From Squalus acanthias (lineage: Eukaryota), in the NCBI GenBank assembly GCA_030390025.1, contig CM059431.1, forward strand, positions 148,306,001-148,370,000: 64,000 nt of DNA, given 5' to 3'. Made by a program: the position numbers and the translations under genes. The notes beneath the pieces were generated by a model. It did no database searches. It saw nothing but the letters and a program-made list of their open reading frames with translations, and was not told the DNA's origin. Position 1 is the first letter of the stretch, and every line of letters starts with the position of its first letter. Shown here piece after piece: positions 4,851 through 59,842 of this stretch.

Positions 4851-4927
4851 AGTCCCTTTTTTGTGTTACAATAATACATCAGTATTGAGAATCTGAACTA
4901 TATAAAACGAAGGAATTATTCCGGCCA

Positions 4928-6184
4928 ATGATCGGGATTCTGCTATTCCACATCAGCCTATTCGGCATATTGGACCAACACTATTTTCCCTATAATAGGT
5001 CGATTGCATTTGCCCTGGAGACACCACCGCGGGACGCCACTGGAAATATTACCCTCCAGTACATCAAGGGTGATTGTGAAACCGCGTGTTCAGCGACAGT
5101 ATGGGTTACCACTGTTGAGGTCCAGGAAGGGAGGGAGGGTATGCATAAAATGCAAAGAACGCCGCACCGGGCCAAGGGTGTGGTTCTTACAAGCAGGACC
5201 AAGTGACCATTCAAGGTACTATCAGATAGGGATCCCTCGGGGGAAAGGAGGAAGCTCGACCCAATCCCGAGCAGCGGCAGACACTCTGTTATGTTGTCCA
5301 CAGTGGTGGCAGGAGCATGAGGGAATCTATGGATGCATAAAACCTTCGGGGACGCAGAGCCGATATGTGGAGCTCCCGTCCACTGGATAGGCGGGAAAAG
5401 TATCCAAGCGAATGGAACAGATGACAGGGGTCCCTACCGCTGTTTCGTGGACAGGGAGGGAAGGCCATGTAGGGGTTCGAAGGGTTGCTCACATTATCAT
5501 ATGCAGGAATATAAAAACGGAATAATACACACGGTGGAATTGAAATCCATCCTAAACTCCCCACCCCACCCGTACGAATAGATCACAACCCCGGGAATAA
5601 CAAAAGGAAACCCGGGTTGTCTGTCCCAAACACACCCCGGGACCGGCAAATAGGTTAGAGCTAATCCCAACTCGGATGATTTTGTACCATGCTCTGCATC
5701 ATGAAGTGATACCTGAAATGTTAAATCTGACCGAGGTGGGACTGCCAAACTGGTGCAAACCAGAAACAACGCTGTGATATGGGAGAATGATGCGGGAATT
5801 AATCGAGGGATTTTGGGAAAGGGCCAACACAACCCTGGTGGAATTGGAATTAGAGCCATTATATCGCAAGGACTCAGGGGATGGTAATGGATTTAGCAAT
5901 AACTTTGGGGAAAAGAGTACCGAGATCATTGAAGAAAATTGTGTTGGTTACGGGGTTACAGGGGACCATTTCAGAACACCACGGGGCCTGATAAATGATG
6001 CAGCCATTGCTTTTAATACCGGAACCTCCCTCGTTAATAGCCTTGATTTGGCTCATTTGGATCAATCCGTAAAGGCAGTTAGAAATCGTTTAAGGGAAAT
6101 TTTGAATAAAATGAATGGTCTGTAACAGCAGGAATTAAAGGAGGACCAAATTACGACCATTTATCGACAGGATATTGTATGGGG
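4928..6184 (+). pseudogene. Decayed viral envelope glycoprotein gene 'env-1': signal peptide, putative Ig-like domain, furin site, start of fusion subunit
   Basis: Hydrophobic N-terminus MIGILLFHISLFGIL, sequons NRS/NIT/NLT/NTT, and RTPR|GLINDAAIAFNTGTSLVNSLD plus a heptad region that aligns by eye with env-2 (RQRR|DTWNDVFTAYSTGSSVINSLD). Several frameshifts and stops; cut off by the LTR at 6185. Confidence 0.7.
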
Positions 6185-7316
6185 TGGTAATGGGGTCAGC
6201 CCTCGCCTTCTGACTCAGTGAGCGGTTCGACTCGCTCCCACGCCCCTGGTTCCTAGACTTTGGACTTATTAGGGGTTGTGAACAAAAATGCAGTAGACAA
6301 CAGGATCTGATGAAAGAATTTTGACTTTATTAAAAGAAAAAGGTAACAAACTTAAAACACACTTAATACTTAAACACAGATTGGGGAGCACACGGTACAG
6401 GCGAGGGCCAACAACAATATACCAAACACAAATCTTATCCCTCCCAAAGATCCCACAATCTAGCTAGGTTTTTGCTTTTAGGAGATCAGGGATAATGCTC
6501 ACCAACGAATCCTTGACAGGATTTTAGAGTCTTTTGATTGAAAGATTTCGTAAGGCCCTTGTTGCTGCGAGGTGTCCGATGGTCACTGAGGCAGTCGCTC
6601 TGGTTTCTTCTTGTGTGATGGTCTGTTTGTTGGCCTTCCTCCTCGTGGCTTGTAGTGGTTTTGCTGGAGCAGGGAGAGAGCTGTGCCAGCGTTGTCAGCG
6701 AGTCCAAAAGAGAAAGAGTCTTGGGACAGGCTTCAATTATATTGTCTTTTTCCCGCCCAAAACCCCTCACTAAAATGGTTTCCTTTAGGTTGCAAATGAG
6801 CCCTGTCCATTCTCTTGTTTTGGCGGGCTTGCCAGTTCCGATGGCTTTTAGCTCAGTGTTAAACATGTCCTGATCGTTTTCCGATTTAACACAGCCTTAT
6901 CTACGCGCCAAATCTCAACCCTATTGTCCTAGGTCGATTTGCGGGCTTTTAACTCTGTCCTGTGGGTACCTGGTTGATTGGTTTTTGATGTATTACTAAA
7001 TGTTTAATTGATTTCAAAAGAGGTCTTGGATTATTCATATTTCGATGTGTTGTGAGGCTTTTGGGTTTTGTCTTTTCCTCCTTGATAGGAAGGCAGTGTA
7101 AACACACTGCAGACAGCTTACTACACTGCCTGGCCACGCCCCTCTGCAGCCTGTGTGTCGGTGAAAGGTGTCTTTCTCAACAGTAAGATTCGAAAAGTCA
7201 TTTTCCTCAGGGTTTTCTTTTTGTGATCTTTAAAAATGTCCAAAATTAAGGGTTTTACTCAAATCACTTCACTTACGATTCTGTTCGAGTTTCTCGGGGA
7301 TTTTGCGAAGCCTATA
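6185..7316 (-). mobile_element. 3' LTR (~1.13 kb) of the env-2 retroelement
   Basis: On the minus strand it follows a polypurine tract (AAAGTGGGGGA, ~7317-7327), contains a TATA-like AATATAAT (~6737-6744) and AATAAA (6326-6331), and ends ...CCCCATTACCA. The same terminus occurs independently at 23416. It starts TA rather than the canonical TG. Confidence 0.75.
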
Positions 7317-7597
7317 TCCCCCACTTTGATACTAAACCTGAATTAGTATAATTAACTGGTGACCAAAATTTCTGATCCCCGAAAACCAACGTCCCCCTGT
7401 ATTACCTAAACTAAAAACCCAAACATACACTCCCCTTTTAAAAGTGGTGTTTCAGGTACATACAGGTAAGAATCAATCTTTATTTCACATCCAAGCACGG
7501 AGAGGGTCCGACACCCCTGCACAGCTTGGAAAACACATCATACACATCATAAAAATGACACAACACACACACACATTTTTTTATTAAAGGACAAAAT

Positions 7598-9072
7598 TCA
7601 AGGTTCGTTCCATCTCTGGCCATAGCCTTTATTTTGATGCTCTTCCCAAGTCCCTTCGTGTCTGGAACGGAACTCCCCGTCCCTTCCCCTGCACTTTGTA
7701 CACAGCAGGTAGAGAACTATCCCGAGCTGGCAGACCACCAAAAGATGGGAAGCAATCCTGATCCAGGAAGGCAATTCCATATTCTCGAAAATATCCCACC
7801 AGGGTGGAACTATTTTATCCAAAATCTCTGCCCCTATTTCAACTGTTTTCTGTTCCAGGGAGTAGAAATGTTTTTGTGATATCTCGACAGCTTTAAGTAG
7901 AATGGTAAAATGTTCGGGTAGAGGGGGAATTTTAGATCCAAAATAAGTCACATACTTTTGCAGGTTGGTGATGTTTTCTGTTTCAGTGAGGTGAACAGAG
8001 GAGGGTTCAGGATTGGGTCAATCCGTTCTTCGGCCAGTTAAACTTCTGCCTCTGGTTTAAAGCAGAAACTTCTGTCACATACCGGACACCAGAAGTGTCC
8101 ATGCTGGTTGTGGGACACACCTGTGGTGACACAATATATCCCACCCCATATATATGCTAACTGTGGGGAAACATGGCCGTGTACCATCACCTCCATGGTA
8201 CAGTTTATAGGTCGTGCGCCAGCGGCTTTAAACCCGCACTGTGGTTTAGAATAGGCGTTCAAGTGCTGGGGACACAGTGTTATGTGTGAACCCCGGCCCC
8301 GGCACCCGGAGAGGTCAGTACCTGTCATGGCGTGCTCCCACTTTATGTCATAAGGTGGGACCGCTGTAAAACGGATGTGTGCACCCCCTTGAATGACTCC
8401 AATGTTCTCCACCCTGTATACCGTTACGGGTCGGGCTGTCCCACTCATGACCGGCATTCTCACTACTATCCCCATGATAGTGTGGTTGGAACGCCCACAA
8501 TCTATTGGGATAGTGTCGGCTTCAGAGGCTAGACGAAAGTGGCATGGGCTCAGCGAATTACTAAACGGGTGGAGGGCTGCGAGGTGCTTGTTGCTGATCC
8601 AGGAGGAGACTAAACCTTGCTTTAAATCCTCCAGGTTGCTACGGCCCTAGCCCAGCAACCATGCCCCGTACAGCACACACACCTCATTCTGTGCAGCCTG
8701 ATCCGATGCATTCCTATCGTCCCGTATGAGTGCATTTACTGTTTTGGCATGCCTTTCCAATTCTGCAATAATTTCCTTTAAATGAACCGTCATAGCTTGG
8801 TCCTCATGTAGCTCTGAGCCTACCACTGTGTTCCCATCCTTCAGGATCTTTCTTAACTGGGTTTTTAAACCATTTATCTGTGTCTGTAATTCCATGTCAT
8901 CCAGGCTATTTATGACAGAGGACCCTGTACTATAGGCAGTGAAAACATCATTCCAGGTATCCCTTCTTTGTCTACCCGTGCCCATAGGATTCTCAGGGTG
9001 TATTCTTTTACAGGAACAGAGCAACGTCACCCTGTTAGGAATGGTATAGTATTAACCCATTCTGCCCGATAC
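7598..9072 (-). pseudogene. Decayed viral envelope gene 'env-2' (fusion subunit), F-protein-like
   Basis: Consecutive in-frame ORFs 8647-9030, 8038-8475 and 7598-7951: furin site RQRR, heptad repeat, Cys-rich region, Trp-rich membrane-proximal segment, TM (IASHLLVVCQLGIVLYLLC) and short tail. In-frame stops near 8648 and 8038; 5' part replaced by CR1. Confidence 0.8.
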
Positions 9073-9752
9073 TGATGATATAAAACTAGGTGAGACAGTA
9101 ATCTGTGAGGAGAAAACAAAGAGTCTGTAAAGGGATATAGATAGACAAAGTGAGTGGGCAGTAAGTTGGCAGATGGAGTATAATGTAGGGAAATGTGACG
9201 TTATTCACTTTGGTAGGTAGAATAGAAAAACCGAATTTATTTTAAATGGTGAGAAGCTTTCAAATGTTGATGTTCAGAGAGATTTGGGTTTCCTCGTGCA
9301 AGAAACACAGAAATCCAGCATGCAAGTACAGGAAGCAATAAGGAAGGCAAATGGCATGTTGTCCTTTATTGCAAGGGGGTTGCAGAATCAGTGTAAGGAA
9401 GTCTTGCTACAATTGTACAGGGCCTTGGTGAGACCACACCTGGAGTACTGTGTACAGTTTTGGGCTCCTTATCTAAGGAAGAATATACTTGCCTTGGAGG
9501 CGGTGCAACAAAGGTTCACTAGATTGATTCCTGGGATGAGAGGGCTGTCCTATGATGAGAGATTGTGTAGAATGTGCCGATACTTTCTGGAGTTTAGAAG
9601 AATGAGAGGTGATCTCATTGAAACATACAAGATTCTGAAGGGGATTGACAGGTTAAATGCTGAGAGGTTGTTTCCCCTGGCTGGAGTGTCTAGAACTAGG
9701 GGACATATCTCCGGATATGGGGTAGGCCATTTAGGACTGAGATGAGGAGGAA
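9073..9752 (+). mobile_element. CR1 LINE ORF2 C-terminal fragment
   Basis: LYRALVRPHLEYCVQFWAP, EFRRMRGDLIETYKI; mirrored at 59843-60525. Confidence 0.9.
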
Positions 9753-9754
9753 TT

Positions 9755-11460
9755 GATATACCCCACACCACTCACTGTAACACTCTGATATACCCAACAC
9801 CCCTCACTCTAACACTCTGATATACCCCACACCCCTCACTGTAACACACTGATATACCCCACACCCCTCACTGTAACACTCTGATATACCCACACCCCTC
9901 ACTTTAACACTCTGATATACTCCACACCCCTCACTCTAACACTCTGATATACCCAACACCCCTCACTCTAATACTCTGATATACCCCACTCCCCTCACTG
10001 TAACACTCAGATCCATGCCACACTCTGGTCTGTTACTATCCAAAACCATTCACTATAATACTGAAATATCTCGCACCACTCACTGTAACACACTCTGATA
10101 TAATCCACACCCCTCACTGAATCGCACTCTGATATTCTCCACACCCTTCAATGTAACACTATGATATACCCCACACTCCTCACTGTAACACCCTGATATA
10201 CCCCACACCTCTCACTTTAACTCTCTTATATACCGCAAACCCCTCACTGTAACACTCTGATATAAAGGCCACACCCCTCACTGTAACACTCTGATATACA
10301 CCACACACCTCACTGTAACATTCTGATATAGACCACACCCCTCACTGTAACACTCTGATATACAACACACCCCTCACTTTAACCCTCCTATATACCGCAA
10401 ACCCCGCACTGTAACACTCTGATATAAAGGCCACACCCCTCACTTCAACAATCTGATGTGAGTCACACCCCTCACTGTAACACTCTGATTTACACCACAC
10501 ACCTCACTGAAACACACTGATATACCCCACACATCTCACTGTAACAATCTGATATGCCCCACACCCCTTACTGAAACAGTCGGATATACCCCACACCCCT
10601 CACTATAACACTCGGATATAAGTCACAACTCTCACTATAACCCTCTGATATACCCTGCACCTTTCACTCTAACTCTCTTATATACCCCAGAACCCTCACT
10701 ATAACAATATGATATACCCCACACTCCTCACTTTAACAATCGGATATACCCCACATTTCTCGCTGTAAAACACTGATAAACTGCACAGCCCTCACTCTAA
10801 CACTGATATACCCCATAACCCTCACTGTAGTCCTCTGATATACTCCAAACCTCTCACTCTAACTCTCTGACATACCCCACTTCCCTCCCTGTAACACTCT
10901 GATATAACCACACTACTCACTCTAACACTGATATAAAACCAGATCGCGCACGTAAACGTCTGATATACCCCACACACCTCACTGCAACACTCTGATATAC
11001 CCCACACCATTCACTGTAATCCTTTGATATAACCCGCACATCTCACTCTAAATCTCTGATATAGCCCCCACCGCTCAACTTAACACTCTGATACATGCCA
11101 TACTCTGGAGTGTTACTGTCCACACCAGTCACTGTAATACTGATATACCCCACATCCCTCACTGTGACATCTGATACATGCCATGCTCTGGACTGTTACT
11201 CTCCACACCACAAACTGTAATACTGATATACCCCACACCCCTCACTCTAACACTCTGATATACCCCACACTCCTCACTGTAGCACTCTGATACATGCCAC
11301 ACTCTGGACTGTTACTCTCCACACCACTCACTGTAATACTGATATATCTCACATCCCTCACTGTGACATCTGATACATGCCACACTCTGGACTGTTACTC
11401 TCCACACCACTCACTGTAATACTGATATATCTCACATCCCTCACTGTAATACTGATATAC
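9755..11460 (-). repeat. ~32-bp minisatellite (reverse orientation)
   Basis: (TGATATACCCCACACCCCTCACTGTAACACTC)n. Confidence 0.92.
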
Positions 11461-11917
11461 CTCGCACTTTTGCCATTGCCACTTTAATCCCATGGGATTC
11501 AACTTTGGTAATATATGGTACTTTATCAAGCACCTTTTGATAGGAGAGGGAAATTGAGAAAGTGAGTGCAGTATCATTCATAAAACCATAGAATTAGTGA
11601 GACAAGTTGTGTTGACAATTTGTTTGGCGGACCATGACGACCCGCTCTGATCACAGGCCTCGCCTGGTTTCAATCAGTGAATTTAAAAATCAGTGATTTT
11701 AATCCCATTTTATTATTTATATTTATTTGTTCTCAGGATATGGGTGACGCTGTCAAGACCGGAATTACATTCCCATCCCTAGTTACCCATGAGCAAATGC
11801 TGGGCCTTCATCTTGAGCCGCTGAAGTCCGTGTGGTGAAGGTGTTACTGTTACGGAAGGAATGTCATGCTTTTGACACAGTCCCGATGAAGGTACGGCGA
11901 TATATTTGAAAGCTACA

Positions 11918-17368: not shown

Positions 17369-20339
17369 TCATCCTTTAATGAATTTTACAATCAGATTAA
17401 ATGGATATATCCCCACATTCTTCAACTGCTCTCTGAACTTAGTCTGGGTCACGGCATAAATCCCAGTGTTTGTGCAGCAACTCAGCAGCTGCAGCATCAA
17501 TGCTATTTTCTGTACATAAAGAGGTAGAGATACAGAATGATACTCCGAATACCACAACCGGTTCCAGATATAAATCACCATAAACATTGCCCATAACAGG
17601 ATGAAATTGCCGGAGATAACAAGCAGTAAAATGATGGATTTCCTGCGGCTCTCCATCTCTGGGTCTCTGGGACTCTCCCCACTGCTGGGACACCGGAGTC
17701 TCCTGCGGGCTCTGCTGGCCACTAAAATGTGTCTGACGGTGACAGCATTGAGCAGCAGAATCACAAAAAATGGGACGCCCGGGGTGAGAAGATAATGAAC
17801 GAGCTCGATTGCTCCCCAGACTCGTGAAATCATAACAGTGTATGTTACCTCACAAAACCAGGGGGTGTTCTGAAGCCGATACCGATCTTTCAACGAAAAA
17901 TACCAGAAGATATTCTTTAACCCGCTCAGCACAGTCACATTTCCCAGAACCACAGCCGCCGTTTTCTCGGTGCAATATTTATTTTTCAGCTTCTGGAGAC
18001 AAATGGCCACAAATCGATCAAAGGTGAAAGTGACGGTGAACCAGACAGAACAGTCTGTGGCTGCATAAAGCAGGACCGCGTGGATATTACACACGCGGAT
18101 GGAACGCAGGAAAATAAACTGTCTCCAATAAACAATCGGAATCTGCCTCAATATCAGGTCGAAGACAACGATCAGTAGATCCGCCGCTGCCATGGCCACC
18201 AGGTAGCGAGTGACACATTTGGAGAGACCGCACTTTCCCCGAGACAGGATCACAATCGTCACTAAGTTCACTGTGAGGAAGGGAAATAAACAGGGAAATT
18301 ATACATCAGGCTGGGATCAAGAGCAGCAGATTGAAGGAATTCGGGGAGAAATCTGCGAAACAATAGCGACATTCAATGATATAATCTAATTATATTACCT
18401 GTGGAGCTGAATACAGGGTTTGTTGTAAGAATAATCGGGAATAAATTGTTGAATCAATAAATGAAATGTTGATAAATGCAACAGGAACTGAAAATGAAAA
18501 GAACAGCAAAATACAGAAACTGCAATCTTGTCGTTCAATAATTATAGGCAATTGTATTTAAAATGTACGGCTGTAATATGCAAATGCGAAGATAATAAAT
18601 ACAAGTGCACTGCAGTTATCAAGATAACCGGGCTGCAAGAAATCTTTTGAAGATTGAGTTTTCTACATTTATGCTGAAATACACAAATTCTAGCTCATTG
18701 AAAGTAAGATTTTCCAAATAACATAAATAGTGGGAACTGAATTAAAATAAATAGTTATCATGGACCAAGTAATATCCGACTCAATGCATTTATTAGCATC
18801 ATAATCAGGCGAATTGTCCAACAGGCAAAGTGATGCCGAATGTATTTGTAAAGTATCTGAACACAAATGGAATAGATTTATCCTTGTACATTTTCACCTG
18901 TTGGTTTCCAACTTGTGCAGAGAATATTAGTCGAGAAAATATGAAAGGATTTTCTTACCCTCAGTACTTCAGTTACAATCAGCTGGGATTGTTTATTCTG
19001 CAGGACAGCAGAAGGCAATCGAGAATCACTCTGGGTCTCACTGAGAGATCCACTGATCTGTGACAGACGGGCATGGGATCCAATTGTAAATTCAAAACAA
19101 AGATTGGAAATAAACGCATTGAAATATGTCTGAGTGAATGTTTTTGAGAATGTAAATTATCCTTGTAATCCTTTTCTAACCATCAGAAGCAGTTCCACGA
19201 ATGCAGAGCATGAGATGGTGGGAAAGGAGACATTGACTGGAACTGAATGAGTCGCGGATATTTAAGACATTTAAAGATGTGGGTGTGATCTGCCAGGATT
19301 TGTTCCTGTGACTCTGTGTCAGTAACCACGCCGAGCATTCAGTGAAAACAAAAGCAAATTACTGCGAATGTTGTAAATCTGAAATAAGCACAGAAAATGT
19401 TTTCAATACTCAGCAGGTCAGGCAGCATCTGTGGAGAGAGCGAGAGTTAACGTTTCAGGTCGATGATCTTTCGTCATTTGGTGAAAAGTCTCCTAAACCA
19501 AGACAACATTCTTCTGATCTGTTACAAATGTTCAGTGCAGAGAACAGAATGAAATTCGTTAAATAAAGTGTATCGTCTAATATAGTTTGTTGAGTTGAAT
19601 ATAGAACAATTGAATCTTGGTTAAACTGTATCACCTTCAGAATCAATAGCCGAGAGCAGCGCGGATGGGATGGAGAAGGAGAAGGAGAGAAATACAGTAA
19701 AACATGATTTATAGAATGAATAGCTGGATACAAGCACTTACCAGGGACACCAACAGTAGCGAAGCGCGGGGCAATCAGTGACAAGAACAGTAATACAGTG
19801 AAACATGATTTATAGAATGAATAGCTGGATACAAGCACTTACCAGGGACACCAACAGTAGCGAAGCGCGGGGGAATCAGTGACAAGAACAGTAATACAGT
19901 GAAACATGATTTACAGAATTAATAGTTGGATACAGGGACTTACCAGGGACACCAAAAGTAGTGAGGATGGGGGGCGGGATAATTGACAAGACCATTAATA
20001 GAGTTAAACATGATTTACAGAATTAATAGTTGGATACAGAGACTTACAAGGTACATCAATAGCAGCGAGAATGCGACTGGCTTTTTAAACAACTCTTGCT
20101 TTAACAAAGATGCAACAACTTGAAAGACAGAATACAATTAAGAACTGAATTTGCCACGGTAAACAGCAATAATAATATTACAGTGTAACATGGTTTATAG
20201 AATTAATAACTGGACATAGGTTCTTACTAGGAACACCAACAGCAGCGAGGAGCGGATAGAAAATCTGTTGTATATCATTAACTATTCCCATCATCCGCAT
20301 CAGTTCATGATAACTTTCGAAAGCGCTGCTGGAACCCAT
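17369..20339 (-). CDS. Class A orphan GPCR, GPR139/GPR142-like; exons 20339-20228 and 18270-17369, ~337 aa
   Basis: Exon 1 MGSSS...IFYPLLAAVGVP ends at a phase-1 GTAAGA donor. Exon 2 follows a pyrimidine tract plus CAG and restores GVP(M)NLVTIVIL. Motifs: LVAMAAADL (TM2), CNIH...FTFDRFVAIC (TM3), PWFC (ECL2), NTGIY (TM7). No stops. Confidence 0.88.
19345..19476. repeat. Penelope-like terminal repeat fragment in the GPCR intron
   Basis: ACTCAGCAGGTCAGGCAGCATCTGTGGAGAGAG...TTAACGTTTCAGGTCGATGA; family assigned from recall only; mirrored at ~47939-48070. Confidence 0.5.
19695..20075 (-). repeat. 101-bp tandem repeat derived from the exon 1/intron junction (4 copies)
   Basis: GTAAGT donors on the minus strand (ACTTAC at 19736, 19837, 19938, 20042), each preceded by a GTTGGTGTCCCTG-like sequence. 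Confidence 0.85.
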
Positions 20340-20996: not shown

Positions 20997-23288
20997 TTGG
21001 GGACGAGTGACCATAGTATGGTGGAGTTCTACATTAGGATGGAGAAGGAAACAGTTAATTCAGAGACCATGGTCCAGGACTTAAATAAGGGCAACTTTGA
21101 GGGTATGAGGCGTGAATTGGCGAGGTTAGATTGGCAAGCGATATTTAAGGGGCAATGGCGGACATTTAGAGATCGCATGGATGAACTACAGCAATTGTAC
21201 ATCCCTGTCTGGCGTAAAAATAAAAAAGGGAAGGTGGCTCAACCATGGCTAACAAGGGAAATCAGGGATAGTATTAAAAGCAAGGAAGTGGCATACAAAT
21301 TGACCAGAATTAGCAGCAAACCCGGGGACTGGGAGAACTTTAAAACTCAGCAGAGGAGGACGAAGTGTTTGATTAGGGCAGGGAAAATAAAATATGATAG
21401 GAAGCTTGCGGAGAACATTAAAACTGACTGCAAAAGCTTCTATAAATATGTAAAAAGAAAGAGGTTAGTAAAAACAAACGTAGGTCCCCTGCAGTCGGAA
21501 ACAGGGGAAGTCATAATGGGAAACAAAGAAATGGCAGATGAATTGAACAAGTACTTTGGTTCGGTGTTTACTGTGGAGGACACACACAAACTGCCGGAAA
21601 TAAAAGGGGTCAGAGGATCTGGTAAGAGGGAGGAGCTGAGGGAAATCCTTATCAGTCTGGAAAAGGTGTTGGGGAAATTGATGGGACTGAAGGCTGATAA
21701 ATCCACAGGGCCTGATGGTCTGTATCCCAGAGTACTTAAGGAGGTGGCCTTGGAAATAGTGGATGCATTGACGATCATTTTCCAAAATTCCTTAGACTCT
21801 GGATGAGTTCCGAAGAAGTGGAGGGTGGCTAATGTAACCCCTCTTTTTAAAAAAGGAGGGAGGGAGAAAGCAGGGAATTATAGACCGGTCAGCCTGACAT
21901 CGGTCGTGGGTAAAATGATGGAATCAATTATTAAAGATGTCATAACAGACCATTCGGAAAGTGGCGACATGATAGGTCCAAGTCAGCATGGATTTGTGAA
22001 AGGGAAATCATGCTTGACAAATCTTCTGGAATTTTTTGAGGATGTTACCAATAGGGTGGACGGGGGGGAACCAGTAGATGTGGTGTATTTGGACTTTCAG
22101 AAGGCCTTCGACAAGGTCCCACACAAGAGATTGGTGTGCAAAGTTAAAGCACTTGGCATTGGGGGTAATGTGTTGACGTAGATTGAGAACTGGTTGGCAC
22201 ACAGGAAACAAAGAGTAGGAGTTAATGGATACTTTTCAGAATGGCAGGCAGTGACCAGCGGGGTCCCGCAGGGTTCGGTGCTGGGGCCCCAGCTGTTTAC
22301 ATTATATATTAATGATTTGGACGAAGGGATTAATTGTAATATCTCCAAATTTGCAGATGGCACTAAATTGGGAGGCAGTGTGAACAATGAGGAGGATGCT
22401 AGGAGGCTACAGAGTGACTTGGACAGGTTGGGTGAATGGGCAAATGTATGGCAGATGAAGTACAATGTGGATAAATGTGAGGTTATCCACTTTGGTGATA
22501 AAAATAGGGAGGCAGACTATTATCTGAATGGTGGCAGATTAGGGAAAGGGGAGGTGCAACGAGACCTGGGCGTCATGGTACATCAGTCACTGAAGGTGGG
22601 AAGGCAAGTGCAGCAGGCAGTCAAGAAAGCAAATGGCATGATGGCCTTCATAGCAAGGGGATTTGAATACAGGAGTAGGGAGGTGATGCTACAATTGTAC
22701 AGGGCCTTGGTGAGGCCACACCTGGAGTATTGTGTGCAGTTTTGGTCTCCTAACTTGAGGAAGGACATTCTTGCTATTGAGGGAGTGCAACGAAGGTTCA
22801 CTAGATTGATTCCTGGGATGGCCAGACTGACATATCAAGAAAGACTGGATCAACTGAACTTGTATCCTCTGGAGTTCAGAAGAATGAGGAGGGATCTTAT
22901 AGAGACGTTTAAAATCTTGACTGGTTTAGACAAATTAGATGCGGGCAGAATGTTTCCATTGTTGGGGAGAACTAAAACCAGGGGTCACAGTCTAAGGATA
23001 AAGGGGAAGCCATTTAAGACTGAGATGAGGAGGAACTTCTTCACCCAGAGAGTGGTGAATCTGTGGAATTCTCTACCACAGAAGGTTGTTGAGGCCAGTT
23101 CGCTAAATATATTCAAAAGGGAGTTAGATATAATACTCACAACTAGGGGGATCAAGGGGTATGGCGAGAAAGCAGGAATGGGGTACTGAGGTAGCATGTT
23201 CAGCCATGAACGCATTGAATGGCGGTGCAGGCTCGAAGGACCGAATGGTCTACTCCTGCACCTATTTTCTATGTTTCTATGTTTCTAT
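20997..23288 (+). mobile_element. Relatively young 5'-truncated CR1 LINE
   Basis: ORFs 20874-21806, 21825-22181 and 22194-23189 are in one frame and separated only by stop codons; full RT motif set; (CTATGTTT)n tail. Confidence 0.95.
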
Positions 23289-23416
23289 CAGATCCTGTCG
23301 TCTACTGCAATTTTGTACACAACCCCTAAATATGTCCAAAGTCTAGGAACCAGAGGGGTGTGGGAGCGATTCCAACCGCTCACTGAGTCAGAAAGCGAAA
23401 GCTGACCCCATTACCA
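23288..23416 (+). mobile_element. LTR 3'-terminal (U5) fragment of the env-2 LTR family
   Basis: Clearly similar to the reverse complement of 6185-6310, ending GCTGACCCCATTACCA; no TGG primer-binding site follows. Confidence 0.8.
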
Positions 23417-33530: not shown

Positions 33531-33689
33531 CTCATAAGCTCCTCTCTATCTCCAACGTTCTCATCTCTATCTCCGTCACCACTCTCTCCCGATCGATATG
33601 TAAAAATCTCTCGTCTGGCTATCTGAATCTATCTCTCCTCTCTATTTCTGTGTCTCAGTCTCGACCTCAATCTCGGTCTTTGTCTGAAT

Positions 33690-36600
33690 CACTCTCTCTC
33701 AGTCTCTCACAGTCTCTCTCTGTCACTCTCTGTCATTTTCTGTCTCTTTGAAACTCCCTGTCTCACTCTATCTCCGTCTCTCTCACTCACTCTCTGCCAT
33801 TCTCAATCACTCTCTGTCTCTCTCACTCTATCTCCGCCTCTCTCACTCACTCTCTGGCATTCTCAATCACTCTCTGTCTCTCTCACTCTATCTCCGTCTT
33901 TCTCACTCACTCTCTGCCATTCTCAATCACTCTCTGTCTCTCTCACTCTATCTCCGTCTTTCTCACTCACTCTCTGCCATTCTTACTCACTCTCTGTCTC
34001 TCTCACTAACTCTATATGTCTCTCACTCAGGCTTTGTCTCTCTCACTCACTCTCTGTCTCTATCACTCACTCTCTTTCTCTCTCATTCACTCTCTGTCCC
34101 AGTCACACTCTGCTTCTCTCACTCACTCTTTTCCTCTCTAACTCACTCATTGCCTATCTCACTCACTCTCTGTCTCTGTCAATCACTCTCCGCTTCTCTC
34201 ATTCATACTCTGTCACTCTCTCTCAATCTCTGTCACTCTCAATCACTCTCTGTCTCTCTAACTTACTCTCTGTCTCTCTCACTCACTCTCTGTCTCTATT
34301 ACTCACTCTCTGCCTCTCTCATTCACTCTCTGTCCCATTCACTCTCTGCTTCTCTCACTCACTCTCTGCCTCTCTCACTCAATCTCTGTCTCTCTCACTC
34401 CCTCTCTGTTCTCTCACTCACTGTCTCTATTACTCACTCTCTGCCTCTCTCATTCACTCTCTGTCCCACTCACTCTCTGCCTCTCTCACTCACTCTCTGC
34501 CTCTCTCACTCTATTTTGCCTCTCTCACTCACTCTCTGCCACTCTCACTCACTCTCTGTCTCACTCACTCGCTCTCTACCTCTCTCACTCAATCTCTGTC
34601 TCGCTCAGTCTCAGCCTATCTCACTCACTCTCTGCCTCTCTCACACACTGTCCTTCTCTTTCACTCACTTTGTCTCGCTCACGCACTCTCGGTCGCTTTC
34701 ATGCACTCTCTTTCACTATCACTCACTCTCTGTCTCTCTCACTCACTCTCTGCCTCTCCCACACACTGTCGTTCTCTTTCACTCACTCTCTGTCTCGCTC
34801 ACGCTCTCTCGGTCGCTTTCATGCACTCTCTTTCACTATCACTCATTCTCTGTCTCTCTCACTCACTCTCTACCTCCCTCACAAACTCTCTGTCTCTCGC
34901 ACACACTGTCGTTCTCCTTCATTCACTCTCTGTCTCGCTCACGCACTCTCTGTCTCGCTCTCGCATTCTCTTTCACTATCACTCACTCTCTGTCTCTCTC
35001 ACTCAATCGCTGCCTCTCTCCCTCACTCTCTGTTTCTGTCACTCACTCTCCGTCTCGCTCTCTGTCTCTGTTGGTCTGTTTCACAGCCCTAAGTCTCTGT
35101 TTATCACTCTCTCTCTGTCTTTATTTGTCTCTGCCTCTCACACTTTCACTGTTGTCTCCCTCTCTCTGTCTCTCTAGCTCTCACTGTCTCTCCCTCTCAC
35201 TGTCTCTCTTTCTCACTGTCTCTCTCTCTCACTGTCTCGCTCTGGATCTCTCTCTGTCTCTCGTCTCTGCCACTCTCTCTTTCAGCCTGGCGATCCCGCT
35301 GTCTTTCTCTCTGCGCCTCTCTCACTCGCTCACTGTCTCTATCACTCACTCTCTTTCTCTCTCATTCACTGTCTGTCCCACTCACTGTCTGCCTTTCTCA
35401 CGCACTCTCTGTCTATCTCACTCACTCTCTGTGTCTCTCACTCACTCTCTACCACTCTCACTCACACTCATACTCTCACACACTCTCTGTCTCTCTCACT
35501 CACTCTCTTTCTCTCTCATTCACCATCTGTCCCACTCACTCTCTGCCTCTCTCACTGACTCTCTGACTCTCTCACTCACTCTCTGTCTCTCTCACTCACC
35601 ATCTGTCCCACTCACTCTCTGCCTCTCTCACTCACTCTCTGACTCTCTCACTCACTCTCTGACTCTCTCACTCACTCTCTGACTCTCTCACTCATTATTT
35701 TCCTCTCTAACTAACTCACTGCCTATCTCACTCACACTCTGCCTCTCTCACTCGCTCTTTGCCTCTCTCACTCACTCTCTGTCTCTCTCACTCACTCTCT
35801 ACCACTCTCACTCACACTCATACTCTCACTCACTCTCTGTCTCTCTCACTCACTCTCTTTCTCTCTCATTCACTCTCTGTCCCACTCACTCTCTGCCTCT
35901 CTCACTCACTCTCTGCCACTCTCACTCACTCTCTGACTCTCTCACTCACTCTCTGACTCTCTCACTCATTATTTTCCTCTCTAACTAACTCACTGCCTAT
36001 CTCACTCACTCTCTGCCTCTCTCAGTCGCTCTTTGCCTCTCTCACTCACTCTCTGTCTCTCTCAATCACTCTCTGACTCTCTCACTCGCTCTTTGCCTCT
36101 CTCACTCACTCTCTGTCTCTCTCACTCAATCTCTGTCTCTCTCACGCACTCTCTTACTCTCTCAATCAATCTCTGTCCCTCTCACTTATTTTAGCTCTCT
36201 CACTCACTCTCTGTCTCTCTCACTCAATCTCTGTCTCGCTCACTCTCTGCCTGTCTCACATAATCTCTGTCTCGCTCACTCAATCTCTGTCTCTCTCACG
36301 CATTCTCTTACTCTCTCAATCAATCTCTGTATCTCTCACTCATTCTAGCTCTCTCACTCACTCTCTGTCTCTCTCACTCAATCTCTGTCTCGCTCACTCT
36401 CTGCCTGTCTCACTTAATCTCTGTCTCTCTCACTCAATCTCTGTCTCTCTCACGCACTCTCTTACTCTGTCAATCAATCTCTGTCTCTCTCACTCATTCT
36501 AGCTCACTCACTCACTCTTGTCTCTCTCACTCAATCTCTGTCTCGCTCAAACTCTGCCTGTCTCACTTAATCTCTGTCTCTCTCAGTCAATCTCTGTCTC

Positions 36601-37290
36601 TCACTCACACTGTGTCTCTCTCACTCACTCTCTGTCTCACTCAATCTCAGTCTCGCTCACTCTCTGCCTGTATCACTTAATCTCTGTCTCTCTCACTCAA
36701 CCTCCGTCTCTCTCACGCACTCTCTTACTCTGTCAATCAAACTCTGTCTCTCTCACTCATTCTAGCTCTCTCACTCACTCTCTGTCTCTCTCACTCACTC
36801 TCTGTCTCTCTCACTCACTCTCCACCACTCACACTCACTGTCTGTCGCTCTCACACACAGATGTTTTCTTCCACTCACTCTCTGTCTCGCTCTCGCACTC
36901 TCGGTCTCTCTCCGTGCCTCTCTCACTCTCTCTTTGCCACTGTCACGCACTCTCTGTCTCTCACACTCACTCTCTGTCTCTCTCACCCACTCTCTGCCTC
37001 TCTCACCCACTCTCGGTCTCTGTCACAAACGGTCATTCTCTTTCACTCACTCTGTCTCTCTATCTCTCTCACGCACTCTGTCTCTCTCAAGGAATCACTG
37101 CCTCTCTCACTCAATCTCTGCCTCTCTCACTCACTCTCAGTCTCCCTTATTCACTCTCTGCCTCTTTCACTCACTGTCAGTCTCTCTTACTCAATCTCTG
37201 CCTCTCTAACTCAATCTCTGTCTCTCTCACTCATTCTGTCTCTCTAATTCACTCTCTGACTCTCTCACGCACTCTCAGTCTCTCTCACTC
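33690..37290. repeat. Degenerate CT/CACT-rich low-complexity satellite
   Basis: CTCTCTCACTCACTCTCTGT-like units with higher-order repeats (60 bp x4 at ~33760-34000). Confidence 0.95.
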
Positions 37291-38455
37291 ACAGCCCCAC
37301 CCTCTCTAACCCCACCCAATCACTTCCACTCTAACCCCACCCAGCCCACCCACTATAACCCCGCCCAGCCACTCCCACTCTAACCTCAACCAGTCCCTTC
37401 CTCTCTAATCCCTCCCAGCCCCTTCCACTCTAACCCCACTCAGCCCCTCCCACTATAACTCTACCCAGTCCCTTCCTCTCTAATCCCTCCCAGTCCCTTT
37501 CACTCTAACCCCACCCAGCCCCTCCCACTCTAACACACCCAGCCCCTTCCACTCGAAACCCACCCAGCCCCTCCCACTTTAACCCCACCCAGCCTCTTCC
37601 AATCTAACCCACCCAGCCCCTTCCACTCGAACCCCACCCAGGCCCTTCCACTCTAACACACCCAGCCCCTTCCACTCTAACCCCATCCAGCTCCTCCCAC
37701 TCTAACCCACCCAGCCCCTCCCACTCTTACTAACGCAGCCCCTCCCAGTCTAACCCCACCCAGCCCCTTCCACTCTAACCCCGACCAGCCACTTCCACTC
37801 TAACCCTGCCCAGCCCCTTTCCGCTCTAACCCCACCCAGCCCATTCCACTATAACCCCGCCCAGCCCCTCCCACTCTAACCCCACCCAGCCCCTTCCACT
37901 CTAACCCCGACCAGCCACTTCCACTCTAACCCCGCCCAGCCCCTTTCCTCTCTAACCCAACCCAGCCCATTCCACCATAACCCCGACCAGCCACTTCCAC
38001 TCTAACCCCGCCCAGCCCCTTTCTGCTCTAACCCCACCCAGCCCATTCCACTATAAACCCGCCCAGCCCCACCCACTCTAACCCCACCCAGCCCCTTTCC
38101 GTTATAACCCCACCCAGCCCATTCCACTATAACCCCGCCCAGCCCCCCCACTCTAACCCTGCCCAGCCCCTTCCACTTTATCCCCATTCAGCCACTCCCA
38201 CTCTAACACTATGCAAACCCTCCCAATTTCCCCAACCAGCCCCTCCCACTCTCCCCCACACAGCCCCTCCCACTTAACACCACCTAGCCCTTCTCCCCAC
38301 ACCCTGTCCCTCCCACTCTACCCCAACCCTGCCCCTCGTACTATCACACCACCAAGGCCCTCCCACTCTGCCCCGCCCCTCCCACTCTCCCCCTCTCAGC
38401 CCCACCCACTTTTTCCCCACACTCAGCTCCTCCCACTCTCCCACACCCTGCCCAC
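37291..38455. repeat. C-rich ~24-bp minisatellite (CACTCTAACCCCACCCAGCCCCTT)n
   Basis: Visible tandem array; G-run-rich on the minus strand. Confidence 0.9.
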
Positions 38456-47179: not shown

Positions 47180-50100
47180 ATGGGTTCCAGCAGCGCTTTC
47201 GAAAGTTATCTTGAACTGGAGCGGATGATGGGAATAGTTAATGATATACAACAGATTTTCTATCCGCTCCTCGCTGCTGTTGGTGTTCCTAGTAAGAATC
47301 TATGTCCAGTTATTAATTCTATAAACCATGTTACACTCTAATATTATTATACCTGTTTACCGTGGCAAATTCAGTTATTAATTGTATTCTGTATTTCAAG
47401 TTGTTGCATCTTTGTTAAAGCAAGAGTTGTTTAAAAAGACAGTCGCATTCTCGTTACTATTGATGTACCTTGTAAGTCTCTGTATCCAACTATTAATTCT
47501 GTAAATCATGTTTCACTGTATTACTGTTCTTGTCACTGATTCCCCCGCGCTTCGCTACTGTTGGTGTCCCTGGTAAGTCCCTGTATACAACTATTAAATC
47601 TGTAAATCATGTTTCACTGTATTACTGTTCTTGTCACTGATTTCCCCGCGCTTCGCTACTGTTGGTGTCCCTGGTAAGTCTCTGTATCCAGCTATTCATT
47701 CTGTAAATCATGTTTTACTGTATTTCTCTCCTTGTCATTCTCCATCCCATCTGCGCTGCTCTCGGCTATTGATTCTGAAGGTGATACAGTATTACCAAGA
47801 TTCAATAGTTCTATATTCAACTCAACAAACTATATTAGACGATACACTTCATTTAACGAATTTCATTCTGTTCTCTGCACTGAACATTTGTAACAGATCA
47901 GAAGAATGTTGTGTTGGTTTAGGAGACTTTTCACCAACTGACGAAAGATCATCGACCTGAAATGTTAACTCTCTCTCTCTCTCCACAGATGCTGCCTGAC
48001 CTGCTGAGTATTGAAAACATTTTCTGTGCTTATTTCAGATTTCCAACATTCGCAGTAATTTGCTTTGGTTTTCACTGAATGCTCGTCGTGGTTACTGACA
48101 CAGAGTCACAGGAACAAATCCTGGCAAATCACACCCACATCTTTAAATGTCTTAAATATCCGCGACTCATTCAGTTCCAGTCAATGTCTCCTTTCCCACC
48201 ATCTCCAGCTCTGCATTAGTGGCACTGCTTCATATGGTTAGAAAAGGATTACAAGGATAATTTACATTCTCAAAAACGTTCACTCAGACATATTTCAATG
48301 CGTTTATTTCCAATCTTTGTTTTGAATTTACAAGTGGGTCCCGTGCCCGTCTGTCACAGTTCAGTGGATCTCTCAGTGAGACCCAGAGTGATTCTCTATT
48401 GCCTCCTGCTGTACTGCAGGATAGACAATCCCAGCTGATTGTAACTGAAGTACTGAGGATAAGAAAATCCTTTCATATTTTCTCGACTAATATTCTCTGC
48501 ACAAGTTGGAAACCAACAGGTGAAAAAGTACAAGGATAAATCTATTCCATTTGTGTTCAGATACTTCACAAATACATTCAGCGTCACTTTGCCTGTTGGA
48601 TAATTCGCCTGATTATGATGCTAATAAATGCATTTAGTCGGATATTACTTGGTCCATGATAAATATTTATTATAATTCAGTTCCCACTATTTATGTTATT
48701 TGGAAAATCTTCCTTTCAATCAGCTAGAATTTGTGTATTTCAACATAAATGCAGAAAACTCAATCTTCAAAAGATTTCTTGCAGCCCAGTTATCTTTATA
48801 ACTGCAGTGCACTTGTATTTATTATCTTAGCATTTGCATATTACAGCCGTACATTTTAAATTCAATTGCCTGTAATTATAGAACGCCAAGATTGCAGTTT
48901 CTGCATTTTGCTGTTCCATTCATTTTCAGTTCTCAAATATAAAGGAAATTCTAACCAGGCGCATGAGTCCAAGCCGGATTTCCTCCTCCCGAACACAAGG
49001 GGCACTGAAGCGTATTCAGCTCTCCAAATGCTGACTGATCCCGGACCACGAAGGCTGCCTGAGAGGTCCTGGTCCTTTGAGTCCCTGGTACTTCGGGCGG
49101 AGCTTTTGTCCGCTGGGCAAAAGGCAGGTCTACCATTTAATCTCTCATTGATCAAACATTGGTTACATTCCTGGTGTATTTATCACGTTTTCATTTATTG
49201 ATTCAACAATTTATTCCCGATTATTCTTACTATAAACCCTGTATTCAGCTCCACAGGTAATATAATTAGATTATATCATTTAATGTCGCTATTGATTAGC
49301 AGATTTCTCCCCGATTTCCTTCAATCTGCTGTTCTCGCTCCCAGCCTGATGTATAATTTCCCTGTTTATTTCCCTTCCTCACAGTGAACTTAGTGACGAT
49401 TGTGATCCTGTCTCGGGGAAAGTGCGGTCTCTCCAAATGTGTCTCTCGCTACCTGGTGGCCATGGCAGCGGCGGATCTACTGGTCATTATCCTCGACCTG
49501 ATATTGAGGCAGATTCCGATTGTTTATAGGGAACAGTTTCAATTCCTACGATCCGAAAGCGTGTGTAATATCCACGCCGTCCTGCTTTATGCAGCTACAG
49601 ACTGTTCTGTCTGGTTCACCGTCACTTTCACCTTTGATCGATTTGTGGCCATTTGTCTCCAGAAGCTGAAAACTAAATATTGCTCCGAGAAAACGGCGGC
49701 TGTGGTTCTGGGAACAGTGACTGTGCTGAGCGGTTTAAAGAACATCGCCTGGTATTTTTCGTTGAAAGATCGGTATCGGCTTCAGAATCTCCCCTGGTTT
49801 TGTGAGGTAACATACACTGTGATGATTTCACGGGTCTGGGGAGCAATCGAGCTCGTTCATTATCTTCTCACCCCGGGGGTCCCATTTGTGGTGATTCTGC
49901 TGCTCAATGCTGTCACCGTCAGACACATTTTAGTGGCCAGCAGATCCCGCAGGAGACTCCGGGGTCCCAACAGTGGGGAGAGACCCAGAGACCCAGAGAT
50001 GGAGAGCCGCAGGAAATCCATCATTTTACTGCTTGTTATCTCCGGCAATTTAACCCTTTTATGGGCAATGTATATGTTGATTTATATCTGGAATCGGTTG

Positions 50101-50286
50101 TGGTATTCGGAGTATCATTCTGTATCTCTACCTCTTTATGTACAGGAAATAGCATTGATGCCGCAGTTGCTGAGTTGCTGCACAAACACTGGGATTTATG
50201 CCGTGACCCAGACTAAGTTCAGAGAGCAGTTGAAGAATGTGGGGAAATATCCCTTTACTCTGATTGTAAAATTCATTAAAGGATGA
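47180..50286 (+). CDS. Class A orphan GPCR, GPR139/GPR142-like; exons 47180-47291 and 49385-50286, ~337 aa
   Basis: ATG in good context at 47180, donor GTAAGA at 47292, acceptor TTCCTCACAG ending 49384, phase compatible; seven hydrophobic segments with DRF and NTGIY; no stops. Confidence 0.88.
47445..47720 (+). repeat. 101-bp tandem repeat derived from the exon 1/intron junction (3 copies)
   Basis: GTAAGT at 47472, 47573 and 47674. Confidence 0.85.
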
Positions 50287-58189: not shown

Positions 58190-59842
58190 GTGCGAGGCAT
58201 ACCAGTATTACAGTGAGGGATGTGAGGTATATCATTTTTACAGTGAGTGGTGTGGGGAGTAACAGTCCAGAGTATGGCATGTATCACAGTGCTACAGTGA
58301 GGGGTGTGGGGTATATCAGAGGATTACAGTGTGGACTGTGGGGTATATCAGTATTACAGTGACTGTTGTGGAGAGTAACATCCCAGAGTATGGCATGTAT
58401 CAGATGTTAGAGTGAGGGGTGTGGGGTATATCCGAGGATTACAGTGAGGAGTGTGGGGTATATCAGTATTACAGTGACTGGTGTGGAGAGTAACAGTCTA
58501 GAGTGTGGCATGTATTAGAGTGTGAGAGTGAGGGGTGTGTGGTATATCAGTATTACAGTGAATGGTGTGGAGAGTAACAGTCCATAGTATGGCATGTATC
58601 AGAGGGTTACAGTGAGGGGTGTGGGGAGTATCAGAGAGTTCCAGTGAGGGGGGTGGAGTATATCTGAGTGTGTTACAGTTAGTTGAGGTTGCTATATCAG
58701 TATTATAATGAGAGTTGTGTGAGAAGTAATAGTCCAGAGTGTGGTATGTATCAGATTGTTAAACTGAGCGGTGTGTGTTATATCAGAGATTTAGAGTGTG
58801 AGGTGTGGGTTACATCAAAGGATTACAGTAAGGAGTGTGGGGTATATCAGTTTGTTACAGTGAGGTGTGTGGGGTATATCAGACGTTTACAGTGAGGGAT
58901 CTGGCGTACATCAGTGTTAAAGTGAGCGGTTTGGGGTTTATCAGAGATTTAGAGTGAGAGGCCTGGGTATATCAGAGTGTTACAGGGACGGACGTGGGGT
59001 ATATCAGAGAGTTAGAGTGAGAGGTTTGGAGTATATCAGAGGATTACAGTGAGGGTTATGTGGTATATCAGTGTTAGAGTGAGGGCTTTGCAGTTTATCA
59101 GAGTTTTACAGCGAGAATTGTGGGGTATATCAGATTGTTAAAGTGAGGAGTGTGGGGTATATACAAGAGTTAGAGTGAAAGGTGCAGGGTATATCAGAGG
59201 ATTACAGTGAGAGTTGTGACTTATATCAGTGTGTTACAGTGAGGGGTGTGGGGTATATCAGATTGTTACAGTGAGAGGTGTGGGGTATATCAGTGTGTTA
59301 CAGTGAGGGGCGTGGTGTAAGTCAGCGTGTTACAGTGAGGGGTGTGACTTATATGAGATTGTTGAAGTGAAGGGTGTGGCTTTTATATCAGAGTGTTACA
59401 GTGAGGGTTTTGCGGTATATAGGAGAGTTAAAGTGAGAGGTGTGGGGTATATCAGAGTGTTACATTGAGGGGTATGGAGTATAGCAGAGTGATACATTGA
59501 GGGGTGTTGTGTATATCAGAGTGTTACAGTGAGGGGTGTGGTGTATATCAGAGTGTTACAGTGAGGGTTGTGGCCTTTATATCAGAGTGTTGCAGTGAGG
59601 GGTTTGCGGTATATAAGAGAGTTAAAGTGAGAGGTGTTGGGTATATCAAGGTGTTACAGTGAGGGGTGTGGGGTATATCACAGTGTTACATTGAAGGTTG
59701 TAGAGAATTCAGAGTGCGATTCAGTGAGGGGTGTGGAGTATATCAGAGTGTTAAAGTGAGGGGTGTGTGGTATATCAGAGTGTTACAGTGAGGGGAGTGG
59801 GGTATATCAGAGTGTTACAGTGAGGGGTGTGGGGTATATCAA
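58190..59842 (+). repeat. ~32-bp minisatellite
   Basis: Mirror of 9755-11460. Confidence 0.92.

Follow-up and report, generated by a model that had tools for sequence, protein, structure and literature searches.

A dead provirus 3' end in Squalus acanthias and its full-length relatives: a retroviral lineage with a predicted F-type envelope

What kind of retrovirus leaves behind an envelope (Env) whose subunit after the furin site is very long and lacks the hallmarks of gamma-type Envs? The question is raised by a locus in a 64,000-nucleotide stretch of spiny dogfish DNA (Squalus acanthias, assembly GCA_030390025.1, contig CM059431.1, positions 148,306,001 to 148,370,000; hereafter the window). 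The original prediction placed here, at 6185–9072 on the minus strand, the 3' end of a long terminal repeat (LTR) retroelement with an F-protein-like envelope, and ascribed it to a loki-like or gypsy-like virus of a cartilaginous fish. Our analysis indicates that the fragment is very probably what is left here of an endogenous retrovirus (ERV), a dead 3' end whose full-length relatives carry gag, pol, and env between LTRs, with a canonical retroviral reverse transcriptase (RT) and an Env predicted to be a class Ib, F-like fusion protein. On this reading it is a retrovirus lineage with an F-type Env that is neither a lokiretrovirus nor a foamy virus.

A provirus fragment and its full-length relatives

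Using the LTR as a genome-wide query, a check proposed together with the original prediction, yielded 3,685 candidates, 40 of which were scored. Many of the 40 start exactly at query base 127, and several form direct pairs 5–13 kb apart. Sixteen genomic stretches were fetched around LTR matches; LTR, gag, RT, integrase (IN), and env occur together in three of them, and the rest are internally deleted, interrupted, or 5'-truncated like the copy in the window. In other copies the LTR thus flanks gag-pol-env. The provirus is laid out as LTR-gag(CCHC)-pro-RT-tether-RNase H (RH)-IN-env-LTR, and Pfam matches follow in the order zf-CCHC, weak aspartyl protease (RVP/gag-asp_proteas matches only), RVT_1, RNase-H-like tether, RNase_H, Integrase_H2C2, and rve. 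Family LTRs begin TGTA and finish TACA, and a target-site duplication (TSD) of 4 bp was found in 8 of the 10 LTR pairs examined, sister subfamilies included. Lying 2–3 bases past the 5' LTR, an 18-nt primer-binding site (PBS) is complementary to the 3' end of the host tRNA-Arg(UCG), matching at 18 of 18 positions in one copy and at 17 of 18 in two; ARAGORN detected the tRNA-Arg(UCG) gene in all three loci checked. An ATG that is in frame with gag overlaps the PBS at positions 1366–1386 of one locus (L011) and at further 5' LTR junctions too, and because of this overlap so close to the LTR the leader between LTR and gag may be almost nil. A large tandem array of 1.6-kb period with tRNA-Arg(UCG) and tRNA-Ser(GCU) genes lies elsewhere in the genome (G000:C26:38.99-42.2 Mb), where the pattern has 422 exact matches genome-wide.

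An in-frame TGA-CT(A/G) separates gag and pol in seven of eight loci, and the eighth stretch begins after that codon. In alphaviruses UGA CUA is described as a context for readthrough, and a UGA at the junction is reported for salmon swim bladder sarcoma virus and two ERVs (PMC13517186). Reverse transcription would be primed by tRNA-Arg, and Pol would be made through readthrough of UGA-CU(A/G). Divergence between paired LTRs (Kimura two-parameter) is 1.4–2.8% in all four pairs of the window's LTR type, which gives an age of about 30–60 million years at the rate of 2.2e-10 assumed in one study (PMC4422223), and tenfold less at a mammalian rate; LTR identity is 97.5–99.2% in six of ten related loci. 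A genome search with RT gave 18,791 candidates, and each of the 97 that were scored is at least 81% identical to the query, from which it follows that the family is large. In one provirus a DDE_Tnp_4 transposase, which we take to be of Harbinger type, is inserted in env (L011, 8962–9900).

The window element spans 9004–6176 on the minus strand and consists of a truncated env, a polypurine tract (PPT), and an LTR. It is a dead, inert provirus 3' end without predicted function, and the 5' three quarters of the provirus are gone. The env part (7598–9004, minus) starts near codon 316 of 784 and ends with the stop codon, with 94% nucleotide identity to the full-length family env. It had rightly been read as an envelope gene; homology starts at 9004, hence 9005–9072 is non-env. 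Its reading frame is left in three minus-strand pieces by in-frame stops at 8649–8647 and 8040–8038 and a frameshift right after the second stop. A PPT is present, as had been foreseen, at 7317–7327 (minus), directly against the LTR, rather than in the purine run at about 7443–7430; it precedes the 3' LTRs of other copies at the same position and is absent before 5' LTRs. The LTR itself is real, as the genomic pairs show, and at 1,141 bp (6176–7316, minus) it extends beyond the 6185 boundary initially drawn, with AATAAA at 6331–6326 and the family termini TGTAGG...CCTACA.

The envelope and its predicted fold

The unbroken family Env open reading frame (ORF) comprises 784 amino acids. It opens with a signal peptide; some 210 more residues and a linker lead to an F2-like part, after which come RQRR at residue 327 and a subunit of 454 residues. 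RQRR is the only furin-like site in the family Env and the candidate F2/F1-type cleavage point; in the window it occupies 8973–8962 on the minus strand, where the original prediction had it. The claim of a post-furin subunit of more than 400 codons also stands, given the 454 residues in naturally unbroken copies, and so does its proposed layout of heptad repeat, Cys-rich block, PPWW segment, membrane anchor, and tail. In window coordinates, all on the minus strand, a fusion-peptide-like segment and long N-terminal helices resembling heptad repeat A occupy 8650–8961, as judged from helices in the model and a weak colinear match to residues 79–162 of human parainfluenza virus 3 (hPIV3) F. The putative Cys-rich beta core (8040–8560), comparable to F domains I/II, is modeled with a predicted local distance difference test score (pLDDT) of mostly 77–97, and the profile matches hPIV3 F 258–375 and the foamy transmembrane subunit. 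The remainder (7598–7830), read from sequence, holds the PPWW membrane-proximal segment (7807), the membrane anchor (about 7765–7693), and the cytoplasmic tail ending at 7598. A gamma-type transmembrane subunit was rejected: in agreement with the earlier reading, neither CX6CC nor an immunosuppressive (LQNRxxLD-type) motif is present in the two family Env ORFs scanned. The CX6CC pattern occurs in one of nine homologues (P0228), at the membrane-anchor end rather than at the gamma position. Gamma-type Envs with a CX6CC-type transmembrane subunit do occur elsewhere in this genome.

An Env profile search covering 1.84 billion representatives returned 55 matches at E up to 0.001. Twenty of them were looked up: nine come from sharks, five from frogs, two from coelacanth, two from teleosts (eel and carp), and two are unnamed. 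A cartilaginous-fish host, an elasmobranch, is indicated by Env homologues 60–67% identical in Rhinoraja and Pristiophorus. Among the frog homologues are numerous annotated genes that are full-length and nearly identical to one another (16 members in Mantella and 3 in Bombina; clusters P0228 and P0239), a multiplicity that suggests recent activity in amphibians. Other Env groups in the dogfish genome show about 25–40% identity, and further F-type env groups (L138 = G000:C6:89053297-89056584; L146-L175) are 24% identical to the window-family Env and have RT in the same clade. Scans of viral contigs and metagenomes gave no usable relatives.

When a 52-row Env profile was compared with the PDB, five "Fusion glycoprotein" chains came on top, the best being 1ztm (hPIV3 F, E 0.009). 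A 78-row profile placed foamy Env on top (E 0.0016), and neither profile recovered the other's match. The ectodomain model built on 78 rows (pLDDT 72.8; predicted TM-score, pTM, 0.58) has hPIV3 F as its best Foldseek match (E 1.5e-10, TM-score about 0.4), and every listed PDB row is a paramyxo- or pneumovirus F. In a VIA-align comparison with 48,161 chains, nine F proteins reached Z 10.0–11.4, foamy Env 8.2 and 7.7, and unrelated rows at most 6.6; the top match, parainfluenza virus 5 F (Z 11.4), aligned over 286 residues at a root-mean-square deviation (rmsd) of 8.1. Matches to the model in BFVD included glycoproteins of lispi/arliviruses and of a fish filovirus, baculovirus F, and the Env proteins of walleye epidermal hyperplasia virus 1 (WEHV1, E 5.3e-8) as well as of walleye dermal sarcoma virus (WDSV, E 1.3e-6). 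The prediction for the family Env is therefore a class Ib fusion protein that resembles paramyxovirus F, the core being understood as defined for the foamy Env structure (PMC11468914), and the F-like, non-gamma envelope first suggested is upheld by profile searches, model, Foldseek, and VIA-align alike. Searched singly, Env sequences had no significant match in the PDB or in Pfam. A genome search with PF00523 gave three sub-threshold matches only, one of which (L138) is an Env relative, a lead and not evidence by itself.

The N-terminal region of Env probably holds an immunoglobulin (Ig)-like domain, to judge from an invariant Cys, Trp, and Cys in nine rows and Ig_3 matches at E 0.02–0.5, which are sub-threshold; the sole PDB match of a profile of this region was CRTAM, at E 1.3, and a full-length Env model on 30 rows had pLDDT 31. 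In the mechanism that we propose, Env would be directed by its signal peptide, and furin would split it at RQRR, giving an N-subunit made up of a probable Ig-like domain for attachment, a linker, and F2 strands, along with the 454-residue fusion subunit. Attachment would proceed via the Ig-like head, and the fusion subunit would refold into a helical bundle like that of F. Furin cleavage, trimer formation, and membrane fusion by the family Env are all predictions from motif and model.

Placement of the lineage and the origin of its envelope

Compared with the PDB, the family RT scores 190 bits with foamy protease-RT, 185 with an RT/RNase H p80 chain, and 110 with Ty3. The nearest database Pols, 45–51% identical, are frog and coelacanth proteins named NYNRIN-like. 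A lokiretrovirus identity was first taken from these names and then overturned by the published RT alignment and by trees. The family motif is LPQGFHNSP; in that alignment the snakehead retrovirus (SnRV) shares LPQGFH, and all lokiretrovirus rows shown carry PFG (PMC7947760). For the trees, 180 sequences were gathered, 24 were dropped for incomplete RT, and hand-chosen subsets of 74, 43, 44, and 31 rows were used. Lokiretrovirus references were database proteins picked by motif, two to three per tree (full RT: P0105, P0109, and P0113), and SnRV was represented by one motif-picked proxy (P0086, exact motifs 4 of 4). All four RT trees place lokiretroviruses outside, and the family inside, the canonical retroviruses (97 in the Shimodaira–Hasegawa-like approximate likelihood-ratio test, SH-aLRT; 100/97; 99/97; 100/99). 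The three careful trees unite the family with the frog, coelacanth, and P0011 Pols at 96/94, 93/91, and 95/96, and this clade also takes in all five RT rows from shark F-env groups of greater divergence. Foamy and gamma/epsilon clades are separate from the family, and an approximately unbiased (AU) test rejected its union with foamy viruses (p=0.021). With the SnRV proxy, a single row, the family forms a polytomy or separate weak clades. The RT/IN phylogeny proposed at the outset thus puts the family outside both lokiretroviruses and gypsy elements by RT and in a basal polytomy that includes lokiretroviruses by IN, and neither the loki-like nor the gypsy-like classification survives.

This genome holds other ERV groups too. 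Gamma-type-Env ERVs (L127, L133-L135) have RT 44–50% identical to the family and form their own clade with other shark Pols, with a position that varies between alignments; an env swap considered for L127 and L133 was discarded, since both join the gamma/epsilon rows (98/98) once the alignment is lengthened. Foamy-like ERVs (L113-L126, L140-L145) have Spuma protease and Foamy_virus_ENV matches, and their RT groups with simian foamy virus.

How, then, did the lineage come by its envelope? Were it a true lokiretrovirus, or a sister group of lokiretroviruses extended to cartilaginous fish, an F-like Env with an RXXR site and a dual RNase H would be shared features, and the IN polytomy and the NYNRIN-like names of the nearest Pols would fit; the beginning of F2 also resembles published lokiretrovirus Envs by eye (PMC7947760), and an AU test on RT alone gives p=0.068 for the union. 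However, the PFG motif is absent from the family RT, the family stays outside lokiretroviruses in every RT tree, and adding the tether lowers the AU value to p=0.0005. About 210 extra N-terminal Env residues likewise set the family apart, the lokiretrovirus RT motif pattern has no match in this genome, and in the survey by Wang and Han none of three chondrichthyan genomes was positive (PMC7947760). This explanation is largely refuted, and we consider it very improbable. An env-bearing Metaviridae element of errantivirus type would draw on the frequency of F-type env in invertebrate errantiviruses (10.1101/2023.10.26.564294) and on baculovirus F among the structural matches; it is refuted by domain order and trees, its chance being close to nil, since the family has a tether plus second RNase H, a combination missing from most gypsy elements, gypsy rows are split from it by branches of 100/99–100/100, and Ty3 RT scores far below the foamy and p80 chains.

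Two further explanations concern Env rather than Pol. Retroviruses are known to swap RH, IN, and env (PMC7947760), and env, perhaps with IN, could have been acquired by a canonical retrovirus through recombination with a lokiretrovirus or foamy virus, which would make it uninformative on the ancestral envelope; the loki-grade IN and the profile match to the foamy transmembrane subunit fit such an event. Yet shark families with Envs only about 25–40% identical share one RT clade wherever RT is readable, so any swap would be old; the foamy-type env loci of this genome are unmatched by the Env profile, and Env homologues extend across sharks, frogs, coelacanth, and teleosts. We regard recombination as unlikely, though worth keeping in mind. 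Independent capture from a non-retroviral virus, such as a mononegavirus or a baculovirus-like F carrier, is suggested by the structural scores, in which lispi/arlivirus glycoproteins, the fish filovirus glycoprotein, paramyxovirus F, and baculovirus F surpass foamy Env. Here, however, a large insertion in foamy Env depresses its scores, structure scores at 10–14% identity do not give ancestry, and the walleye retrovirus Envs match too, which adds a further retroviral carrier; we think such a capture quite unlikely.

Several results weigh against a canonical retrovirus with a class Ib Env. A 20-row Env profile matched neither hPIV3 F nor foamy Env in the PDB, single family Env sequences matched no fusion-protein family in Pfam, and the model, with pTM 0.58, gives TM-scores of 0.38–0.46 with large rmsd. 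The Ig-like domain depends on sub-threshold matches, without a confident fold. The lokiretrovirus and SnRV rows are motif-identified proxies, and named ERV-L, beta, alpha, and lentivirus rows are absent from the trees. The AU test on RT alone (268 columns) does not reject a union with lokiretroviruses, and the alignment that does (RT plus tether, 402 columns) was chosen afterwards. In the IN tree, which had no row for CGIN1, the protein to which lokiretrovirus IN is closest, the family lies in a basal polytomy with lokiretrovirus, frog, coelacanth, and turtle rows, with SnRV plus foamy and gamma/epsilon apart. Finally, the pairing of the frog and coelacanth Env homologues with the frog and coelacanth Pols is presumed.

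No paper was found on an F-type Env in a non-loki, non-foamy vertebrate retrovirus, in line with the suggestion of a possibly undescribed lineage; the search did not extend to Repbase, to papers behind subscription, or to the supplements of Han 2015, Xu 2018, and PMC10699275, which may hold such elements. Sharks have a lineage related to SnRV (PMC4422223), and clade Huo is found across all vertebrates (PMC6001957); the Pol lineage may therefore have been published already, with its Env going unrecognized. The errantivirus study postpones vertebrate ERVs to a future report (10.1101/2023.10.26.564294). A screen in which a recognisable env is required would miss such elements or call them env-less, because their Envs match no fusion-protein Pfam model.

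As the Pol of the family groups with ordinary retroviruses, outside the two groups known to carry such an Env, the F-type envelope may be ancient among retroviruses. We go further only tentatively, holding the following somewhat short of an even chance: all retroviruses would descend from an ancestor with the F-type (class Ib) Env, which lokiretroviruses, foamy viruses, the early-branching shark-frog-coelacanth clade, and probably walleye epsilonretroviruses would have retained, with gamma/beta (class Ia) Env as a later replacement. The clade, which combines a canonical RT, a loki-grade IN, and an F-type Env, would then bear the closest witness to the first canonical retrovirus, with its own added Ig-like head as attachment module. 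Published accounts prefer independent env gain by lokiretroviruses and canonical retroviruses (PMC9040795) and regard the F-like fold as the mark that separates foamy viruses from orthoretroviruses (PMC11468914). Both lose force with a third, broad carrier of F-type Env among the canonical retroviruses, and Env-versus-RT phylogeny becomes a way to test where retroviral env came from.

History of the locus and comparison with known systems

The window copy lies within an older F-type env belonging to a sister family (family 2), the 5' half of which (probable Ig-like region, F2, furin-like site, and F1 start) lies at 4860–6172 on the plus strand and is interrupted by the 3' LTR. Family 2 Env has about 28–35% amino-acid identity to that of the window family, with 50–60% in IN. 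A genome search gave 42 matches from 40 scored candidates (copies L037-L056). In the eight upstream stretches fetched, homology stops inside IN and no related RT follows, which suggests that family 2 is a deleted, non-autonomous form. The place of the missing provirus part is occupied by a long interspersed nuclear element (LINE) fragment (9074–9752, plus), presumably CR1-like, with 72–75% identity to other LINE pieces of the window, one of which has an RVT_1 match. A second copy of the env fragment, with the same 5' junction and without LTR, lies at 60591–61961 (plus) in a segmental duplication (93% identity over 2.4 kb, LINE included), and the env/LINE junction recurs at two loci on contig C1736. 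Because this junction recurs and the junction of LTR and older env is common to all six paralogous loci examined, the ERV fragment would have been truncated first and then copied by segmental duplication together with a G-protein-coupled receptor cluster. Two paralogous 309-residue open frames with 7tm_1 matches, at 17369–18298 (minus) and 49357–50286 (plus), lie inside an inverted duplication. A 135-bp scrap of the LTR 3' end, 90% identical, remains at 23282–23416 (plus). Long minisatellite arrays with 32-, 20-, and 25-bp units stand amid LINE fragments at 1450–2150, 9750–11470, 33600–38450, and 58200–59840.

Among known systems, foamy viruses differ from the family in several respects. The family RT falls outside theirs, it has no Spuma protease match, its extra Env domain is N-terminal whereas that of foamy viruses lies between the subunits, and it has a CCHC Gag with gag and pol in frame, whereas foamy Gag lacks CCHC and foamy Pol is not fused to Gag. 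Common to both are the predicted class Ib core in Env (Z 8.2; profile E 0.0016) and a long Cys-rich fusion subunit (PMC11468914). With SnRV and clade Huo, including the elephant-shark CmiERV lineage I, the family has in common very similar RT motifs, a basal position among canonical retroviruses, and aquatic hosts (PMC6001957; PMC4422223), but it groups with the SnRV proxy in no tree and its IN is separate from that of SnRV. ERV4 is likewise a non-class I/II ERV with env; it has a 5-bp TSD and lacks both a zinc finger and GPF/Y, in contrast to the 4-bp TSD, one CCHC, and GPY motif of the family (PMC4299795). Class I (gamma/epsilon) ERVs share the 4-bp TSD, zinc knuckle, GPY/F motif, and gag-pol stop junction (PMC4299795), whereas the family is without a gamma-type transmembrane subunit and its RT is outside the gamma/epsilon clade.

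The walleye epsilonretroviruses resemble the family in a stop-codon gag/pol junction and in Env. Since the BFVD-predicted Envs of WEHV1 and WDSV match the F-type model, a class Ib Env may be in use among exogenous epsilonretroviruses as well; a literature search on this point found nothing. They differ in that epsilon-like RT rows form a separate clade, the walleye Envs measure 1,159–1,317 residues in BFVD, and WDSV uses UAG. Paramyxo- and pneumovirus F proteins appear, from the model, to share the F2/F1 core fold (Foldseek E 1.5e-10, Z 10–11.4) and furin activation at about 10–14% identity; here the protein is carried by a retrovirus and is extended at the N-terminus, where the added part may stand in for a separate attachment protein. 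Lokiretroviruses agree with the family in the LTR-gag-pol-env order, an Env related to Mononegavirales F that bears a signal peptide, an RXXR site, a fusion peptide, a coiled coil, and a membrane anchor, and an IN of basal grade (PMC7947760); the tether and second RNase H are found in the family and in all retroviruses, lokiretroviruses included. Set against these likenesses, the family has LPQG in place of PFG in an RT that lies inside the canonical retroviruses, and a long N-terminal Env extension with a probable Ig fold that the published lokiretrovirus Envs, compared by eye, do not have (PMC7947760).

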